From Chiloscyllium plagiosum (Eukaryota): a DNA stretch of 21,983 nucleotides. Numbering within the stretch: the stretch's first letter is position 1; each line of letters opens with the position of its first letter. Below the pieces are notes generated by a model that was not told where the DNA came from, made no database searches, and worked only from the letters and a program-made list of their open reading frames with translations. The stretch covers positions 3,169,797 through 3,191,779 of the forward strand of contig NC_057719.1 in NCBI RefSeq assembly GCF_004010195.1. The letters run 5' to 3'. This document shows positions 2,854-21,983 of the stretch, in pieces. The position numbers and the translations under genes were made by a program.

Positions 2854-3484
2854 CCATTATACAACCCTACTCTCTTGACATTATAAAGTATTTATTCAAA
2901 TCTTCTGCTATTTCTTGGCTCCTCATTATTTTTCCCAAGTCTCATTCTCTAAGGGATTTATGTTCACTTTTGCCTCTCTCTTCCTTTTGACATATTTAGA
3001 AGAAGCTCTTACTGTTTGTTTTTATATTACTTGCTTATTTGCCTCATAGTTTATATTTTTCCCTCAGATATGTTTTCATTGGCTTTCGTTGGCTTTAGGA
3101 TATTCCCAATCCTTCATCTTTTTAATTTTGCCACATTTTATGACTTTTTTCTTTAAATGTAATATTATCCTTCCGTCACTTGTGTTAGCCGTGTCCAGTT
3201 TATTCTCTTCGAAGAATCCTTCTTCCTCACTGGGACATATCTTTGCTTTCGGTCATGAACTATTTTATTAAATGTCGGTCATTCTTCCTCAACCATCCTT
3301 TCTGTTAATCGCCTTTCCCGGTCCACTCCAGTCAACTCAGCCTCATTATTTAGTAATTATCCTTATTTGAGCTTAGTGTAGCTGTTTATGGCCCAAGTTT
3401 CTTACTCTCAAAATAAATGTGAAATTCTACCATGTTATGGTCACTGTTCCCTCAGCAATCTTTTAGTCTGACATTATTTCTTAA

Positions 3485-3674
3485 TGATTTGGAGATGCCG
3501 GTGTTGGACTGGAGTGTACAAAGTTAAAAATCACACAACACCAGGTTATAGTCCAACAGGTTTAATTGGAAGCACACTAGCTTTCGGAGCGACGCTCCTT
3601 GGAGCGGCGCTCCGAAAGCTAGTGTGCTTCCAATTAAACCTGTTGGACGATAACCTGGTGTTGTGTGATTTTTA
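3485..3674. mobile_element. Fold-back (palindromic) Penelope-like retroelement remnant with 14-bp TSD
   Basis: Inverted arms 3523-3598 and 3601-3676 (74/76 complementary), with a 38-nt extension at 3485-3522. Direct repeat ACATTATTTCTTAA at 3471-3484 and 3675-3688. Both arms contain GGAGC-N3-GCTCC-GAAAGCTA (hammerhead stem II plus GAAA). Confidence 0.8.
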
Positions 3675-3895
3675 ACATTATTTCTTAAAATTTCCCCTTA
3701 CACGTCACCAAAAACCTGATCTCTTATTGGATCTGCCACATATTGTTCCAGGAAACTGTCCTGAATACAGTCTTTGAATTCTTTCTTATGGCTCCCTTTA
3801 CCAGTTAAAATCACCCATTGCCTTTTTTACTGCCTTTCCCCACATCCGCCCCCCCACCAATGCCTTCTTTCCCTTTTTTATTTCTTACCTGAACC

Positions 3896-5889: not shown

Positions 5890-6735
5890 TATTGAAGAAG
5901 ACAAATGGTATGTTGGCCTTCATAGTGAGAGGGTTAGAGTACAGGAGCAGAGATGTCTTGCTGCTATTATACAGGACATTGGTGAGATCACACCTGGAGT
6001 ATTGTGGGCAGTTTTGGTCTCCTTATCTGAGGAAGGATGTCCTGGATATTAACGGAGCACAGCAAGGTTTCCCAGACTGATTCCTGGGATGAAGAGTGTG
6101 GTGCTGGAAAAGCACAGCAGGTCAGGCAGCATCTGAGGAGCAGGAGAATCAACATTTCATACATAAGCCCTTCATCATGAAACGTCGATTCTCCTGCTCC
6201 TTGGATGCTGCCTGACCGGCTGTGCTTTTCCAGCACCACACTCTTTGACTGTGATCACCACACCTGCAGTCCTCACTTCCTCCTGATTCCTGGGATGGCA
6301 GGACTGACGTATGACGAGAGAGTGAATCAGTAAGGATTATATTCACTGGAGTTTAGAAGAATAAAAGGGATCTCATAGAAACCTGTAAAATTCCAACAGG
6401 ATTAGACAGAGTAAACACAGGAAGGATGTTCCTGATGGCCAGGAAGTCCAGAATCAGGGGGTCACAGTCTAAGGATATGAATAAGGCCATTTATGACGAA
6501 GATGAGAATTTCCTTCACCCAGACAGTGGGGAGCCTGTGGAACTCTGCCACAGAAAGCCATTGAGGCCATAACTTTGAATGTTTCCATAAAAGAGCTAGA
6601 TAAAGTTCTTGGGGCTAAAGGGGAGAAAGTGGAACAAAGTAAGGAGTTTGACGAACAGCAATGATCCTATTGAATGGTGAAGCAGTGTCAAAAGGCTGAA
6701 TGGCCTACACCTGTTCCTGCTTTCTCTGTTTCGAT
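5890..6735 (+). mobile_element. CR1-clade LINE 3' fragment (second subfamily), interrupted at 6092-6282
   Basis: Encodes KKTNGMLAFIVRGLEYRSRDVLLLLYRTLVRSHLEYCGQFWSPYLRKDV. The 3' UTR ends GGCTGAATGGCCTACACCTGTTCCTG, homologous to 8245-8642. Confidence 0.88.
6092..6282. mobile_element. Fold-back Penelope-like element with perfect 15-bp TSD
   Basis: Inverted arms 6092-6160 and 6177-6245 (~64/69 complementary), with a 37-nt tail at 6246-6282. TSD CTGATTCCTGGGATG at 6077-6091 and 6283-6297. A degenerate hammerhead core lies in the centre. Confidence 0.85.
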
Positions 6736-6873
6736 GATGTACTGCCTACATATCTGGCATCACACAGGCACTGAAATTCTTATACCATGTTACGCAATGG
6801 GAAGCCTGTCAGTGGCAAACAACAGCCATGTTGCTATAGTATCACATTCCATGGCAAAACTTGTCCCACCACA

Positions 6874-7070
6874 ATTTAGATCAGAGTGGTGCTGGAAAAG
6901 CACAGCAGGTTAGGCAGCATCCGAGGAGCAGGAAAATCGACGTTTCGGGCAAAAGCCCTTCATCAGGAAATTTTCCTGCTCCTTGGATGCTGCCTGACCT
7001 GCTGTGTTTTTCCAGCACCACTCTGATCTAAACTCTGGTTTCCAACAACTGCAGTCCTCACTTTTGCCTA
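6874..7070. mobile_element. Fold-back Penelope-like element, same family as 6092-6282
   Basis: Inverted arms 6875-6937 and 6970-7032 (60/63 complementary), with a 38-nt tail at 7033-7070. Imperfect TSD CTTGTCCCACCACA (6860-6873) / CCTGTACCACCACA (7071-7084). Confidence 0.85.
6931..6976 (-). ncRNA. Minimal type I hammerhead ribozyme motif
   Basis: Minus strand reads GGAAAAUUUC-CUGAUGA-A-GGGC-UUUU-GCCC-GAAA-CGUC^GAUUUUCC. It has the conserved CUGAnGA and GAAA boxes, a 4-bp stem II, a palindromic ACGU in place of stem III, and a GUC cleavage triplet. Confidence 0.7.
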
Positions 7071-7231
7071 CCTGTACCACCACAGCCCACTTGCCAACCA
7101 CGAGAGCACAGTCCTCTCAATTTGTACAACTATTGGTCTTATCCTTGAAATGATGTTCTTGCAAAATGTCCTGGTGAGTGTGAGATGAAAAGCTGTGGCA
7201 AAATGTTGCCTTTTTTCAGTAATGCTGTACT

Positions 7232-10081: not shown

Positions 10082-10185
10082 CAAGAGAAAGTGCTGGAAA
10101 CACTCAGTAGGTCAGTTAACATTGAGAGAGAGAGAGAGAGAGAGCAAGGCAGAAGCTGATTCAAATTCCTGGTCAATGACCTTGG
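10082..10185 (-). mobile_element. Degenerate Penelope-like terminal fragment with internal (GA)n expansion (10124-10144)
   Basis: AAAGTGCTGGAAACACTCAGTAGGTCAG resembles the arm GTGCTGGAAAAGCACAGCAGGTCAGG of the fold-back elements. Confidence 0.5.
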
Positions 10186-10364: not shown

Positions 10365-11766
10365 ACGAACTGAACAAAGAACGTTACAGCACAGGAACAG
10401 GCCCTTCAGCCCACCAAGACTGTGCTGAGACCTGAAGCCTTTCTAAACTATAAACCTTTTGCCCCTATGCTGTTTGTATCCCTCTATCCCCTCCCTGTTC
10501 ATGTAACTGTCAAGGTGCCTCTTAAACATTGTCATTGTATCCACCTCCACCAACTCTGCGGGTAGTGCATTCCAGGCACTTACCATCCTCTGTCTAAAAA
10601 ACACCCATCTATCACATCTCCTTTAACTTCCCCTTTTACCTTAAACCTATGTCCCTTAGTTAATGGCATTTCTACTCCTGGGAAAAAGATTCTGACTATC
10701 CATTCTATCCACGCTTCTCATAATTTTGTAAATCTGCGTCAGACTGCCCTTCATCCTTTGAAGTCTAAGTTAAAACAAACCAAGTCTGTCCAATCTCTCC
10801 TCATAGCTAATACTCTCCAAACCAGGCAAAATCCTGGTAAACCCTTTCTGTACCCTCTGCAAAGCCTCCAGAATGTTCTGGTAGTATGATGGCCATAACT
10901 GTACACAATATTCCAAATGTGGCCTAACTAAAGTTTTAAGCAGCTGCAACATGTCTTGCCAATTTTTATACTCTATGCCTCAGCCAATGAAGGCAAAGAT
11001 TCCATATGCCTTCTTGACCACCTTATCCACTTGTCTTGCCCCTTTCAAAGGAATCTGGACCAGTGTGTCTGGATTCTTCCATATGTTGATGCTTTTAGGG
11101 ATTCTGCCTTTTCTCGTATGCGTCCCTCCCACATTAGATTTCCTATAATTCATCACCTCGCATTTGTCTGGATTAATCCATCTACCATTTCTCTGCCTTA
11201 ATCTCCAGCCTATCTACATTCTGCTGTATCCTTTGGCAATCCTCCTCCCTGTCCACAGCTCCACAAATGTTCGTGTCATCCGCAAACTTACTAATCAGGT
11301 CCCCTACATTCTGCTCCAAATATATTTCCAAGCAACAAGGCTCCCACCACAGATCTCCTGGCAGAAAAGCACCCTTTCATTACTACTCTGTTTCTGACTG
11401 AGCCAGTTCTGTATCCATCTTACCCTCTCACTGCAGATCCCACATGACATCACCTTCTGTACCAGCCTGCCATGAGGGACCTTGTCAAAAGCCTTGCTAA
11501 AGTCCATATGGACAACATCCACAGCACTACCCTCATCAATCATCTTCATCCACTTCCACATAAAGCTCAATCACATTTGTGAGACTTGACCTTCCCTGCA
11601 CAAAGCCCATGTGGCCTGTAGTTAATATATTTTTCCAAATGTAAGTAAATTCCTGTCCCAAAGAATCTTCTCTGAATTTCTGAGCCATGATCTAAGGCTT
11701 GCTGGCTGTCACTTCCTCGATTATCCCTGTTGCTCTTCTTAAAGAAAGGACCAACATTGGCTATTC
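10365..11766 (-). mobile_element. CR1-clade LINE, RT domain to 3' end, with internal deletions
   Basis: Minus-strand IDEGSAVDVVHMDFSKAFDKVPHGRL...WIQNWLS, KFADDT (~11271-11289) and LVRPHLEYCVQLW...LQRVQKGFTRILPGL, followed by a TTCTTTGTTC tail. Confidence 0.9.
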
Positions 11767-12501: not shown

Positions 12502-12585
12502 GATAACATCAAAATGCTGGAGATCGCAGCTGGTCAGGCAGTACCCATGGAGAGCAAGCCAGCTAACGTTTGGAGTCGAGATGAA
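12502..12585 (-). mobile_element. Degenerate Penelope-like terminal fragment
   Basis: AAATGCTGGAGATCGCAGCTGGTCAGGCAG...CTAACGTTT resembles the fold-back arm ending in ACGTTTC. Confidence 0.45.
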
Positions 12586-14102: not shown

Positions 14103-14326
14103 CTGGGATGGCGAGTCGGAAAAGAGGGATGGTCCCTAGATGTGGGGCTGGGAAAGACAGACAGTCCCTGGATATGGGGCTGAGAAAGGCAGACTCCCAG
14201 GGTGTGGGACTGGGAAAGATGGACACTCCCTGGATGTGGATCTAGGAAAGACAAATATTCCCAGGATGTGGGTCTGAGAAAGAGAGGCATTCCTGGGATG
14301 TGAGGCCAGGAAAGATGGATGATCCC
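14103..14326 (+). repeat. Degenerate ~32-bp tandem repeat, ~7 copies
   Basis: Units of the form CCWGGATGTGGGNCTGRGAAAGANRGACANTC. Confidence 0.8.
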
Positions 14327-14364
14327 AGAATTGATTTTCTCCCTATGTTATTTTCCAGTCTTGT

Positions 14365-14635
14365 GGGTGGTGATGGTCATGATAGTGATGGTGGCGATAA
14401 GGGATTGATAATATTGTGATGTCATGTAGTCATCTCGGTGATTGTGGTGATGGTGGTGAAGGTGATAGTGTTGGCAGTGACCGTGCTGGTGGTGCTGATG
14501 GTGATGGTGATGTCAGTGGAGTTGTTCATGGAGGTGATGGTGATAATGGTGGTCTTGGTAGTAATGGTGGCACTGGTGGTAATGGCGATGGAAGTGATGA
14601 CTGTTTTGATGGTAGTGTTAGCAATGGCTTTGCCA
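14365..14635 (+). repeat. Degenerate (GGT/GAT)n trinucleotide low-complexity tract
   Basis: Persistent 3-nt periodicity (GGTGATGGTGGT...), giving G/D-, V/M- and T/I-rich spurious ORFs. Confidence 0.88.
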
Positions 14636-15629: not shown

Positions 15630-16599
15630 NNNNNNNNNNNNNNNNNNNNNNNNNNNNNNNNNNNNNNNNNNNNNNNNNNNNNNNNNNNNNNNNNNNNNNN
15701 NNNNNNNNNNNNNNNNNNNNNNNNNNNNNNNNNNNNNNNNNNNNNNNNNNNNNNNNNNNNNNNNNNNNNNNNNNNNNNNNNNNNNNNNNNNNNNNNNNNN
15801 NNNNNNNNNNNNNNNNNNNNNNNNNNNNNNNNNNNNNNNNNNNNNNNNNNNNNNNNNNNNNNNNNNNNNNNNNNNNNNNNNNNNNNNNNNNNNNNNNNNN
15901 NNNNNNNNNNNNNNNNNNNNNNNNNNNNNNNNNNNNNNNNNNNNNNNNNNNNNNNNNNNNNNNNNNNNNNNNNNNNNNNNNNNNNNNNNNNNNNNNNNNN
16001 NNNNNNNNNNNNNNNNNNNNNNNNNNNNNNNNNNNNNNNNNNNNNNNNNNNNNNNNNNNNNNNNNNNNNNNNNNNNNNNNNNNNNNNNNNNNNNNNNNNN
16101 NNNNNNNNNNNNNNNNNNNNNNNNNNNNNNNNNNNNNNNNNNNNNNNNNNNNNNNNNNNNNNNNNNNNNNNNNNNNNNNNNNNNNNNNNNNNNNNNNNNN
16201 NNNNNNNNNNNNNNNNNNNNNNNNNNNNNNNNNNNNNNNNNNNNNNNNNNNNNNNNNNNNNNNNNNNNNNNNNNNNNNNNNNNNNNNNNNNNNNNNNNNN
16301 NNNNNNNNNNNNNNNNNNNNNNNNNNNNNNNNNNNNNNNNNNNNNNNNNNNNNNNNNNNNNNNNNNNNNNNNNNNNNNNNNNNNNNNNNNNNNNNNNNNN
16401 NNNNNNNNNNNNNNNNNNNNNNNNNNNNNNNNNNNNNNNNNNNNNNNNNNNNNNNNNNNNNNNNNNNNNNNNNNNNNNNNNNNNNNNNNNNNNNNNNNNN
16501 NNNNNNNNNNNNNNNNNNNNNNNNNNNNNNNNNNNNNNNNNNNNNNNNNNNNNNNNNNNNNNNNNNNNNNNNNNNNNNNNNNNNNNNNNNNNNNNNNNN
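15630..16599. other. Assembly gap (970 N) flanked by G-rich low-complexity sequence
   Basis: Run of N with GGG-rich flanks at 15510-15629 and 16600-16716. Confidence 1.
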
Positions 16600-16824: not shown

Positions 16825-17143
16825 CATGAGACGTTGGCATCAACTGGCACAGCCAGAGTTTGTTGTTTGTCCCTAATTGCCCTCAAGAGGGGTGGTGGAG
16901 CTAATTGAGTCCCTTGCTTGGCCACTTCAAAGTTAATTAAAGATCAGTAACATGGCTGTGTTTATAAATCCATCCACAGGCCAGGCTGACTAAGGTCAAG
17001 AGGGTTTCTCCTTGTGGGGCCATTGGTGAATCAGAATGGGTTTTTACCACATTCCTACACATCATCATTACTGTTACCGGATTGTTCCAGAACTATTTAA
17101 GAAAGGTCTGTGGTAGAATTTGAATTTGAATCTCCATGGTATA
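16825..17143 (-). mobile_element. Degenerate tRNA-derived shark SINE (same family as 9010-9200), head end abutting the minisatellite
   Basis: Tail TCCCTAATTGCCCTCAAGAGGGGTGGTGGAGCT matches the LINE tail at ~11845-11880 (TCCCTAGTTGCCCCTTGAGAAGGTGGGGGTGAGCT). TGTGGTAGAATTTGAAT at ~17109-17125 parallels TGTGGTGGGATTTGAAC at ~9133-9149. Confidence 0.65.
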
Positions 17144-20100
17144 CAGTAAGTATCCCTGGATATTCAGTAAGGATCCCTGGATATTCAGTAAGGATCCTGG
17201 ATATTCAGTAAGTATCCCTGGATATTCAGTAAGGATCCTGGATATTCAGTAAGGATCCCTGGATATTCAGTAAGTATCCCTGGATATTCAGTAAGGATCC
17301 TGGATATTCAGTAAGGATCCTGGGTATTCAGTAAGGGTCCCTGGATATTCAGTAAGGATCCTGGGTATTCAGTAAGGATCCTGGATATTCAGTAAGGATC
17401 CTGGGTATTCAGTAAGGGTCCCTGGGTATTCAGTAAGGATCCTGGATATTCAGTAAGGATCCCTGGATATTCAGTAAGGGTCCTGGATATTCAGTAAGGA
17501 TTCAGGATATTCAGTAAGGGTCCTGGATATTCAGTAAGGATCCTGGATATTCAGTAAGGATCCCTGGATATTTAGTAAGGGTCCTGGATATTCAGTAATG
17601 ATTCAGGATATTCAGTAAGGGTCCTGGATATTCAGTAAGGGTCCTGGATATTCAGTAAGGATTCAGGATATTCAGTAAGGATCCCTGGATATTCAGTAAG
17701 GGTCCTGGATATTCAGGAAGGGTCCCTGGATATTCAGTAAGGGTCCCTGGGTATTCAGTAAGGGTCCCTGGATATTCAGTAAGGATCCCTGGATATTCAG
17801 TAAGGGTCCTGGATATTCAGTAAGGAACCCTGGATATTCAGTAAGGATCGTGCATATTCAGTAAGGATCCCTGGATATTCAGTAAGGGTCCCTGGATATT
17901 CAGTAAGGATCCTGGATATTCAGTAAGGGTCCTGGATATTCAGTAAGGTTCCCTAGATATTCAGTAAGGATCCTGGATATTCAGTATGGGTCCCTGGGTA
18001 TTCAGTAAGGTTCCCTGTGTATTTAGTAAGGATCCGTGGGTATTCAGTAAGGGTCCCTGGGTATTTAGTAAGGATCCCTGGGTATTCAGCAAGGATCGCT
18101 GGGTATTCAGTAAGGGTCATGGATATTCAATAAGGGTCCTGGATATTCAGTAAGGGTCCCTGGATATTCAGTAAGGGTCCTGGATATTCAGAAAGGGTCC
18201 TGGATATTCAATAAGGGTCCTGGATATTCAGTAAGGTTCCTGGATATTCAGTAAGGATCCTGGATATTCAATAAGGGTCCTGGATATTCAGTAAGGATCC
18301 TGGATATTCAGTAAGGGTCCTGGATATTCAGTAAGGATCCCTGGATATTCAGTAAGGGTCCTGGGTATTCAGTAAGGATCCCTGGGTATTCAGTAAGGAT
18401 CCTGGATATTCAGTAAGGATCCCTGGATATTCAGTAAGGGTCCCTGGGTATTCAGTAAGGATCCTGGATATTCAGTAAGGGTCCTGGGTATTCAGTAAGG
18501 GTCCCTGGGTATTCAGTAAGGGTCTCTGGATATTCTGTAAGGATCCCTGGATATTCAGGAAGGATCCTGGATATTCAGTAAGGGTTCATGGATATTCAGC
18601 AAGGATCCTGGGTATTCAGTAAGGATCCAGGGTATTCAGTAAGGATCCAGGGTATTCAGTAAGGATCCTGGATATTCAGTAAGTATCCCTGGATATTCAG
18701 TAAGGATCCTGGATATTCAGTAAGGATCCAGGGTATTCAGTAAGGTCCTGGGTATTCAGTAAGGATCCTGGATATTCTGTAAGGGTCCCTGGATATTCAG
18801 TAAGGATCCCTGGATATTCAGTAAGGATCCCTGGATATTCAGTAAGGGTCCTTGAATATTCAGTAAGCGTCCTGGGTATTTAGTAAGGATCCCTGGATAT
18901 TCAGTAAAGGTCCTGGATATTCAGTAAGGATTCCTGGGTATTCAGTAAGGATCCCTGGGTAATCAGGAAGGGTCCCTGGGTATTCAGTAAGGATCCCTGG
19001 GTATTCATTAAGGGTCCTGGATATTCAGTAAGGGTCCTGGATATTCAATAAGGATCCTGGGTATTAAGTAAGTGTCCCTGGGTATTCAGTAAGGGTCCCT
19101 GGGTATTCAGTAAGGATCCCTGGGTATTCATTAAGGGTCCTGGATATTCAGTAAGGGTCCTGGATATTCAATAAGGATCCTGGGTATTCAGTAAGGGTCC
19201 CTGGATATTCTGTAAGGATCCCAGGATATTCAGTAAGGGTTCATGGATATTCAGTAAGGATCCTGGGTATTCAGTAAGGATCCTGGATATTCACTAAGGG
19301 TCTCTGGATATTCTGTAAGGATCCCTGGATATTCAGTAAGGGTCCTGGTTATTCAGTAAGGGTTCCTGGATATTCAGTAAGGATCCTGGATATTCAGTAA
19401 GGGTCCTGGATATTCAGTAAGGGTTCCTGGATATTCAGTAAGGATCCTGGGTATTCAGTAAGGGTCCCTGGATATTCAGTAAGGATACCTGGATATTCAG
19501 TAAGGATCCTGGATATTCTGTAAGGGTCCTGGATATTCAGTAAGGATCCCTGGGTTTTCAGTAAGGGTCCTGGATATTCAGTAAGGGTCCTGGATATTCA
19601 GTAATGATCCTGGATATTCAGTAAGGGTCCTGGATATTCAGTCAGGGTCCCTGGATATTCAGTAAGGATCGTGGATATTCAGGAAGGATCCTGGATATTC
19701 AGCAAGGTTCCTGGATATTCAGTAAGGATCCCTGGGTATTCATTAAGGGTCCTGGATATTCAGTAAGGGTCCTGGATATTCAGTAAGGGTCCCTGGGTAT
19801 TCAGTAAGGGTCCTGGATATTCAGTAAGGGTCCCTGGGTATTCAGTAAGGATCCCTGGGTATTCAGTAAGGGATCCTGGATATTCAGTAAGGGTCCTGGA
19901 TATTCAGTAAGGGTCCCTGGTTATTCAGTAAGGGTCCTGGATATTCAGTAAGGGTCCCTGGGTATTCAGTAAGGATCCCTGGGTATTCAGTAAGGGTCCC
20001 TGGGTATTCAGTAAGGATCCCTGGATATTCAATAAGGATCCTGAATATTCAGTAAGGGTCCTGGATATTCTGTAAGGATCCCTAGATATTCAGTAAGGAT

Positions 20101-20914
20101 CCTGGATATTCAGTAAGGGTCCCTGGATATTCAGTAAGGATCTTGGGTATTCAGTAAGGGGCCTGGATATTCAGTAAGGATCCTGGATATTCAGTAAGGG
20201 TCCTGGATATTCAGTAAGGATCCTGTGTATTCAGTAAGGGTCCTGGATATTCAGTAAGGATCCTAGATATTCAGTAAGGGTCCTGGATATTCAGTAAGGG
20301 TCCTGGATATTCTGTAAGGGTCTCTGGATATTCTGTAAGGATCCCTGGATATTCAGTAAGGGTTCATGGATATTCAGTAAGGATCCTGGGTATTCAGTAA
20401 GGGTCCATGGGTATTCCGTAAGGATCCTGGGTATTCAGTAATGGTCCCTGGGTATTCCGTAAGGATCCTGGGTATTCAGTAAGGATCCTGGATATTCAGT
20501 AAGGGTCCTTGAATATTCAGTAAGGGTCCTGGATATTCAGTAAGGATCCTGGATATTCAGTAAGGGTCCTGGATATTCAATAAGGATCCTGAATATTCAG
20601 TAAGGATCCTGGATATTCAGTAAGGGTCCTGGATATTCAATAAGGATCCTGGATATTCAGTAAGGGTTCATGGATATTCAGTAAGGATCCTGGGTATTCA
20701 GTAAGGATCCCTGGGTATTCAGTAAGGGTCCCTGGGTATTCAGTAAGGATCCTGGGTATTCAGTAAGGGTCCTGGATATTCAGCAAGGATCCTGGATATT
20801 CAGTAAGGGTCCTGGATATTCAGTAATGGTCCCTGGATATTCAGTAAGGGATCCTGGATATTCAGTAAGGGTCCTGGATATTCAGTAAGGGTCCTGGGTA
20901 TTCAGTAAGGATCC
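17144..20914 (+). repeat. Minisatellite (VNTR), 20/21-bp unit CAGTAAGG(A/G)TCC(C)TGG(A/G)TATT, ~180-185 copies
   Basis: 3771 bp of uninterrupted head-to-tail units with no spacers. Copy number is estimated from length divided by ~20.5. Confidence 0.97.
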
Positions 20915-21235
20915 ACAGGTGTTTCTAAAGCAATTGAAATTCTGGGTAACTTTGAGTAACCATTGGCCTCAGAGTGACCAGGTCAAGTTCCCACTCCACT
21001 ATCGTATCCCCATTATCCCGGGAGGCTGGCCATTCAGCCCAGCACGGCAATGCTGGTGTTTATATTCCATGTAAATGACTTCCCATTCTCTTGTTTTGTT
21101 TCCTGACTGTAACCTGCTCACTGTCTTGAGGAGAGGGTAGTTTGGAAAGGAAGGATTTACCTTTACATTGGAGATAAACAATTTCACCAAAGTAACTTTG
21201 ATCCAAGTATTCTGGTCTTTGACAGAGTGGGGAAT

Positions 21236-21983
21236 GATGAGCTTGAGGCTCTTTTGGAAATTGGCAGATATGATATTGTGGGGATAACTGAGACGTGGCT
21301 TCAAGTGGACAGGGCCTGGGAAATGAATATTCAAGGCTATATGTGCTATCGTAAGGACAGACTGACGGGCAGAGGGGGTGGGGTGGCCATGTTGGTAAGG
21401 GATGATATTCAGTCCCTTGCGCGGGGGGGAACCGAGAGTCAGGGGATGTAGAGTCAGTGTGGATAGAGCTGAGAAATACTTAGGGTAAAAAGACCCTCTT
21501 GGGAGTTATCTACTGGCCCCCAAATAGTAGTCTGGATGTCGGATGTAAGTTGAATCAGGAGCTGGAATTGGCCAGTCGCAAAGATGTTACTACAATTGTT
21601 ATGGGGGATTTCAACATGCAGGTAGACTGGGAGAATCAGGATGGTATTGACCTCAAGAAAGAGACTTTATGGAGTCCCTCCGCGATGGATTCTTAGAACA
21701 GCTGGTGCTGGAGCCGACCAGGGAGAAGGCAATTCTGGATCTGGTATTGTGCACCGAACCAGAATTGATCAGGGACCTCAAAGTGAAGGAGCCATTGGGA
21801 GGTAGTGACCATAATACAATAAGCTTCAATCTGCAATTTGAGAGGGAGAGGGTACAATCGGTAATGAAAATATTTCAGTTGAATAAAGGGAACTATGGAG
21901 CTATGAGGGAGGAGCTGGCCAAAGTTCAATGGTGCAATACCTTAGCAGGGATGACAGTGGAGGAACAATGGCAGATATTTCTG
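21236..21983 (+). mobile_element. CR1-clade LINE ORF2 AP-endonuclease region, 5'-truncated and frameshifted; continues past the window end
   Basis: DELEALLEIGRYDIVGITETWL...RKDRLTGRGGGVAMLV, IVMGDFN, ILDLVL, EPLGGSDHN. In-frame TAG at 21481 and frameshifts are present. Confidence 0.92.

Follow-up and report, generated by a model that had tools for sequence, protein, structure and literature searches.

A hammerhead core in a long hairpin of Chiloscyllium plagiosum DNA: very probably two truncated Penelope-like element ends joined head to head, with the core silent

A hammerhead ribozyme core lies at the tip of a long inverted repeat in the genome of Chiloscyllium plagiosum, and the question is whether this hairpin makes a working ribozyme or merely marks how the DNA was inserted. 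The window analyzed here, a stretch of 21,983 nucleotides (contig NC_057719.1 of assembly GCF_004010195.1, positions 3,169,797 to 3,191,779 of the forward strand), had been interpreted before by a sequence-only reading, in which the fold-back arms lock stem I and a working ribozyme is kept at the locus by luck or by selection. In this study, we propose instead that the unit is very probably one retrotransposition product of an abundant Penelope-like element (PLE) family, in which two severely 5'-truncated ends, each consisting of hammerhead plus tail, are placed head to head and the core is silent at the locus.

The core is located on the minus strand and is composed of the following elements:

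6960..6966, minus strand: core box C3-A9 (CUGAUGA) of the left arm, with C3 at 6966
6959, minus strand: extra A in the gap between A9 and G10.1, conserved in PLE minimal hammerheads according to PMC4209133
6947..6958, minus strand: stem II, with four G-C pairs (strands 6958-6955 and 6950-6947), a loop of four U and G10.1-C11.1 present
6939..6946, minus strand: G12-A15.1, the ACGU palindrome (6943-6940) without loop III, and C17; a cut between 6939 and 6938 is predicted from the hammerhead consensus

On this strand GAAA occupies 6946-6943 and is followed by C15.2 at 6942, G16.2 at 6941, U16.1 at 6940 and C17 at 6939. Every hammerhead part named by the sequence-only reading is found in its place, and the core numbering leads to the same predicted cut position. 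Its assignment to the minimal type I hammerheads of PLEs is likewise supported: the core has the CUGANGA and GAAA boxes, a UH triplet, a stem II with G10.1-C11.1, one extra nucleotide after A9 and a palindrome (ACGU, 6943-6940) at 15.1-16.1 that replaces stem III. The native 5' strand of stem I is reduced to three nucleotides that form two pairs, compared to a helix I of 4-5 bp in PLE minimal hammerheads. The suspicion that the extra A may limit activity can be dropped, as this nucleotide is a normal feature of the class in the account of PMC4209133.

A dedicated hammerhead search, suggested as a check, gave a divided outcome. With both strands of the window searched, a minimal-hammerhead descriptor hit one site, and 300 dinucleotide-shuffled versions of the window gave no hit, a lenient control given that the descriptor was composed with the motif already in view. 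Rfam returned no hammerhead family, neither among 13 matches to the whole window at any listed E-value nor among 14 matches to 6915-6990. Rfam's hammerhead models presumably expect a stem III. At the hairpin itself Rfam gave hairpin-type matches only, all below the gathering score, with a microRNA-type match as the best one (42.5 bits against a threshold of 75). We attribute the microRNA-type matches to hairpin shape only and do not assign the unit to a microRNA family. ARAGORN reported no tRNA gene, and a scan of three collections with the core motif (contigs of viruses, contigs of metagenomes, genomes of prokaryotes) gave no match.

The limits 6931..6976 originally drawn around the core are too narrow, since the unit comprises 6874-7069 together with its flanking duplications:

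6859..6873, no strand: left target-site duplication of 15 bp, with two mismatches to the right copy; its 12-bp core, 6862-6873, has one mismatch
6874..6969, minus strand: left arm, a sense PLE-type end module in which 3 nt remain of the native 5' strand of stem I, followed by the complete core and a short tail of 65 nt
6970..7032, plus strand: the part of the right arm complementary to the left arm, a sense copy that starts at hammerhead position 1.2 and lacks the core
7033..7069, plus strand: tail extension present in the right arm only, which makes this arm 36 nt longer when measured from position 1.1
7070..7084, no strand: right target-site duplication, partner of 6859-6873

The insert of 196 bp is enclosed by 15-bp direct repeats, and a duplication match of 11 out of 12 is expected by chance at a level of about 0.001 over the 550 boundary pairs searched. 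The 63-bp inverted arms closing on the core, as described before, are borne out: 6875-6937 and 6970-7032 pair in register over 63 positions with three mismatches, and 1-2 base pairs together with a bulge of two U connect them to the core. The right arm starts 1 nt 3' of where the cut is predicted. The arm junction in the centre is without clean microhomology. The predicted fold of 6860-7045 reaches -136.2 kcal/mol (z -18), and none of 200 shuffles was as good. A mirror artefact of the assembly is disfavoured by the three differences between the arms, their unequal lengths and the target-site duplication. In a second sample of the same organism, no high-identity contig among those listed runs across the exact centre, and such a hole proves nothing. 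The right arm carries tail sequence that is absent from the left arm and was therefore not simply copied from it.

An adjacent inverted and 5'-truncated copy, a tail of 36 nt at one end and a target-site duplication are thus all present at 6874-7069. Together, duplications, a tail of 30-40 bp on a single end and an adjacent 5'-truncated copy in inverted orientation are described as the marks of endonuclease-bearing PLEs (PMC8557442, PMC3846280). The PLE assignment rests on this layout and on the motif, because no ORF for reverse transcriptase and GIY-YIG endonuclease could be linked with the family: in the 14 ORFs scanned among the 62 of the window, no GIY-YIG was present, and only LINE-type reverse transcriptase/endonuclease fragments occur, away from the hairpin.

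Within the window, decayed LINE fragments and satellites surround the unit. The LINE-type fragments lie at 11307-11570 (minus strand), 21113-21448 (plus strand) and 21651-21983, with Pfam matches to RVT_1, Exo_endo_phos and Exo_endo_phos_2, two of the three scoring below the curated cut-off. A satellite in which a unit of 20-21 bp is repeated about 185 times (88% matches, 41-bp higher period) extends over 17140-20914, and a 32-bp minisatellite of about six copies over 14132-14315. The GGT/GAT-rich low-complexity stretch 14356-14600 holds a Thr/Ile-rich minus-strand frame of 98 aa without Pfam match. Assembly gaps are present at 2354-2853 (500 N) and 15630-16599 (970 N). At 10091-10122 and 12527-12552, short and diverged sequences match the tail of this family or of a related one.

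Two further hairpins of the window follow the same plan. The hairpin at 6092-6282 belongs to the same family, has a decayed core on the minus strand and a right arm that begins at G12. It is inserted in a LINE fragment and bounded by a perfect 15-bp duplication (6077-6091 and 6283-6297), with a tail asymmetry of 37 nt. The hairpin at 3485-3674 represents a second hammerhead family, which shares the extra A but has an AGCU palindrome and a stem II of 5 bp. Its arms of 79 bp are flanked by a perfect 14-bp duplication (3471-3484 and 3675-3688), differ by 40 nt in length and both end at or just before stem II; most of the first core box is gone from both. All three hairpins of the window consist of one long and one short arm (36, 37 and 40 nt difference), and the centres differ between the two hairpins of the same family. 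The 5' ends of all six arms fall within the hammerhead, from 1 nt 3' to 31 nt 5' of the predicted cut, which suggests either that the template started there or that reverse transcription stalled there.

These features can be brought together in one insertion model. The PLE protein would nick both DNA strands and prime two cDNAs, one at each of two neighbouring reverse transcription start sites in the tail, yielding one long and one short product. Two cDNAs from separate start sites account for the sequence present in the right arm only as well as for the long and short arms in all three hairpins. At 6874-7069, one cDNA would have crossed the entire hammerhead and ended 3 nt before C3, and the other would have stopped 1 nt short of the cut, after which the 3' ends of both cDNAs would have been joined to each other. 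The hammerhead would be an inheritance from the terminal repeat of the parent element, where it presumably acts as a double hammerhead between tandem copies. The model is in line with the purified Poseidon protein of Anolis, which cuts and extends both strands and uses two reverse transcription start sites with a spacing that equals the tail (PMC11167929). Self-priming or a template switch in place of two-strand priming is a possible variant, and one that is favoured in PMC3846280.

To place the locus in its family, contigs of three DNA runs from three organisms were aligned to 6700-7200 at 85% identity. The runs gave 97,098, 105,572 and 130,079 aligned contigs, with nearly all depth on the element: the summed depth, which is not a copy number, amounts to about 1e7 on the element compared to 13-39 for single contigs on the flanks. 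The family is very abundant, and the locus is an ordinary one in its genome. Matches to the family cover two blocks, about 6873 to 6969 and 6970 to about 7073. Contigs diverge past 6969, and the sequence behind this position is heterogeneous across the family, with an agreement of 0.34-0.43. Copies elsewhere do have a core in front of the right-arm sequence, as seen in the loose ends of contigs before 6970, and the consensus of these loose ends has the same CUGANGA and GAAA boxes as 6874-7069. Among the 40 of 86 variant rows listed, variants in 6938-6969 occur at the CpG sites 6939 and 6941, in loop II (6952) and at N7 (6962), the last being the only variable position of the CUGAUGA box. This is the pattern expected of a hammerhead, and the core at 6874-7069 has the family majority letter at all four sites listed.

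The centres of the family hairpins vary as well, and many of the 15 joints listed out of 425 skip both cores. In the three DNA runs, the opposite-strand joint 6933/6969 was found in 8, 5 and 8 contigs, and the joint 6936/6968 in 1, 2 and 4 contigs; five RNA reads have the former. Both repeat the plan of 6874-7069, in which the inverted tail is attached directly in front of the core, and their recurrence speaks against the idea that one core was rescued here by a rare accident. The joint 6933/6969 may be a hot spot for joining or may mark a sub-lineage of hairpins that is copied as a unit. Five of the 24 pieces listed cross the centre, four of them in accordance with the 31-letter bridging rule, yet each carries 9-12 other letters and 2-4 gaps and hence derives from another locus.

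The placement of the whole hairpin inside one duplication and the recurrence of the joint 6933/6969 would also suit a non-autonomous hairpin element, MITE-like or derived from a master hairpin RNA, that is mobilized as one invariant whole. We consider this very improbable: centres vary between the two hairpins of the same family in the window and among the 425 joints, and in all three hairpins the ends are unequal by 36-40 nt, unlike terminal inverted repeats. For the same two reasons, namely variable centres and unequal ends in place of a fixed interior and equal terminal inverted repeats, the unit is not classified as a MITE.

Long palindromes tend to lose their centres. A longer palindrome may have come first, with a core in each arm, one of which was taken by a later central deletion. 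The asymmetric centres of two of the three window hairpins and the many listed joints that skip both cores can be read in this way. This history is nevertheless unlikely, since it requires a second event, while truncation at insertion directly explains that all six arm ends lie about 31 nt or less from the cut. The functional conclusion would be unchanged.

Because only 1 nt separates the predicted cut from the start of the right arm, the template of this arm could have been the 3' product of self-cleavage, with reverse transcriptase running off at its end, in which case the insertion would combine a cDNA of cut RNA with one of uncut RNA. The joint 6936/6968 fits an arm that ends exactly at the cut, given two ambiguous letters in two runs. 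Most observations point the other way, however, and we regard this origin as quite improbable. Five of the six arms of the window hairpins read through the cut, and the joint with more support, 6933/6969, is 5 nt away from it. The RNA depth of the family is about flat across the cut (1,812 at 6934, 1,730 at 6939 and 1,740 at 6941) and drops farther upstream (1,400 at 6952 and 985 at 6962); in DNA there is likewise no drop at the cut, with depth at this place blurred by the clipping of alignment ends and by the choice between two arms. For the Anolis element, PMC11167929 found no RNA-seq ends at the cut site. If the idea were true and the arm ends of the family pile up at 1.1-1.2, they would form a genomic fossil record of germ-line cleavage by PLE minimal hammerheads and of the use of the cut product as insertion template, for which there is no earlier demonstration in the PLE literature compared.

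Under the favoured origin, by insertion of two truncated ends, the hammerhead at 6874-7069 is most likely silent, as judged from predicted folds. The transcript would snap into a long hairpin with a single core, without stem III and with the core mispaired with itself. A head-to-head insertion results in one core per strand, and no second core would be at hand on the same strand as pairing partner. In the predicted monomer fold G5-G8 pair with C15.2-C17, an inactive arrangement in which the probability that G5-G8 are unpaired is 0.01-0.04, and opening of the core is predicted to cost 2.9 kcal/mol. In a double hammerhead two stems III merge (PMC4209133, PMC6466107), and the strand topology of such a dimer implies that each stem I consists of the 5' strand of one copy and the 3' strand of the other. 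An active dimer would consequently have both arms swapped between two molecules, and the arms would first have to open over 63 bp. The double hammerhead of two hairpins is predicted to be 4.9 kcal/mol worse than two monomers. This penalty is identical with the 63-bp arms and with the 46-nt core region, which indicates that the arms give no thermodynamic gain. The fraction of double hammerheads is estimated at about 1e-9 at 1 micromolar, with tertiary energy ignored; all these nearest-neighbour energies leave out tertiary contacts, Mg2+ and help by protein.

The claim that the fold-back arms supply stem I holds in part. The arms do extend stem I on paper, but a stable stem I in cis is of no help to catalysis, because the missing piece is stem III, which can only come from a second core, and because stem I has to form between the partners in the double-hammerhead model. 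The caution that a missing stem III may limit the monomer is in line with PMC4209133, which describes single motifs without detectable cleavage and weak dimers for PLE minimal hammerheads. In the case of the Anolis element, the hammerhead cleaved only with its protein (PMC11167929). It is more likely, on these predicted energies, that the long hairpin is a by-product of insertion that blocks self-cutting rather than enables it.

A working ribozyme at the locus, as the sequence-only reading had it, would be consistent with the intact core, the 4-bp G-C stem II and the arms that close within 1-2 bp of the core. The amphibian hammerheads of PMC7229834, in which a tetraloop caps a stem III of 1 bp, reach 6% monomer cleavage within an hour. 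Moreover, single-depth contigs of organisms B and C run from the tail end into the same right flank; they cover 20 and 30 letters of the element, less than the 31-letter bridging rule asks for, and hint at an old insertion shared with both organisms. Nonetheless, we judge a working ribozyme at this locus to be highly unlikely. Stem III is here without any loop and single motifs of this class are those without detectable cleavage in PMC4209133, the predicted fold sequesters the core, and the energy of the arms is the same in cis and in trans, leaving no push to an active dimer. The preservation of the core is no counterweight. The arms diverge at 3 of 63 positions, or about 2.4% per arm, and at the age implied by this divergence a 32-nt stretch stays unmutated with a neutral probability of 0.46. 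An intact core thus needs no selection, and we see no sign of the selective preservation proposed before.

Transcription of the locus was not seen either, in RNA data drawn from one poly(A) single-cell run, of which about 2% was used, that are poorly suited to 5'-OH ends or rare intronic RNA. Out of 12,955,460 records, 3,368 fall on the stretch, 30 of them at 99% identity or more and 11 over position 6970, and there are none on the flanks 6700-6852 and 7091-7141. The family is transcribed from other copies. No pile-up of read starts or ends was present in this library, whose preparation is poorly suited to 5'-OH ends.

The locus is most likely one more member of the known kind of PLE hammerhead ends, a dead truncated insertion, and as a single locus among very many truncated PLE ends it matters little. 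The role of PLE hammerheads is still called unclear (PMC8557442), and hammerhead cleavage is dispensable for insertion in vitro (PMC11167929). The family as a whole could serve as a data set: its short duplication-bounded hairpins with unequal tails make two-strand priming testable, and its arm ends could tell if cDNAs terminate at the cut site or at the ribozyme's front edge. We found no description of the family in cartilaginous fish in the open-licence literature, and it is likely annotated in Repbase or Dfam. The hosts named in the text of PMC4209133 are bony fish, coelacanth, frog and reptiles, with no cartilaginous fish, and six shark and skate names have no match in two of its supplementary files.

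Compared to known systems, the unit shares with the animal non-LTR retrozymes (PMC7229834, bioRxiv 10.64898/2026.07.22.740005) its non-coding nature, its relation to PLEs and a type I hammerhead, and the latter study reports retrozymes in its one cartilaginous fish genome. Retrozymes are, however, made of units of 170-400 nt in direct tandem, each with its own core, an arrangement that permits dimer cleavage and circular RNA, whereas 6874-7069 is an inverted pair with one core. With no tandem array at this place and one intact core in the window, we do not assign it to the retrozymes. The PLE minimal hammerheads of Cervera and de la Pena (2014, PMC4209133) are much alike in their core boxes, the extra nucleotide between 9 and 10.1, the G10.1-C11.1 pair, the 15.2-16.2 palindrome without loop III and the way in which truncated elements have scattered them as single motifs by the thousands. 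In PLE repeats they are often single or paired on opposite strands at a distance of 100-700 bp (PMC4209133). The present core differs in its stem II, which has 4 bp compared to 7-8 bp in the schistosome families, and in being kept by one arm only. Relative to the endonuclease-bearing PLE units of PMC3846280, PMC8557442 and PMC11167929, the locus is stripped to about 100 nt per arm without ORF, and the duplications of the window hairpins measure 14-15 bp as opposed to the 8-10 bp quoted for rotifer PLEs; yet it has the same head-to-head arms, a tail of 36 nt at one end and a duplication on both sides.
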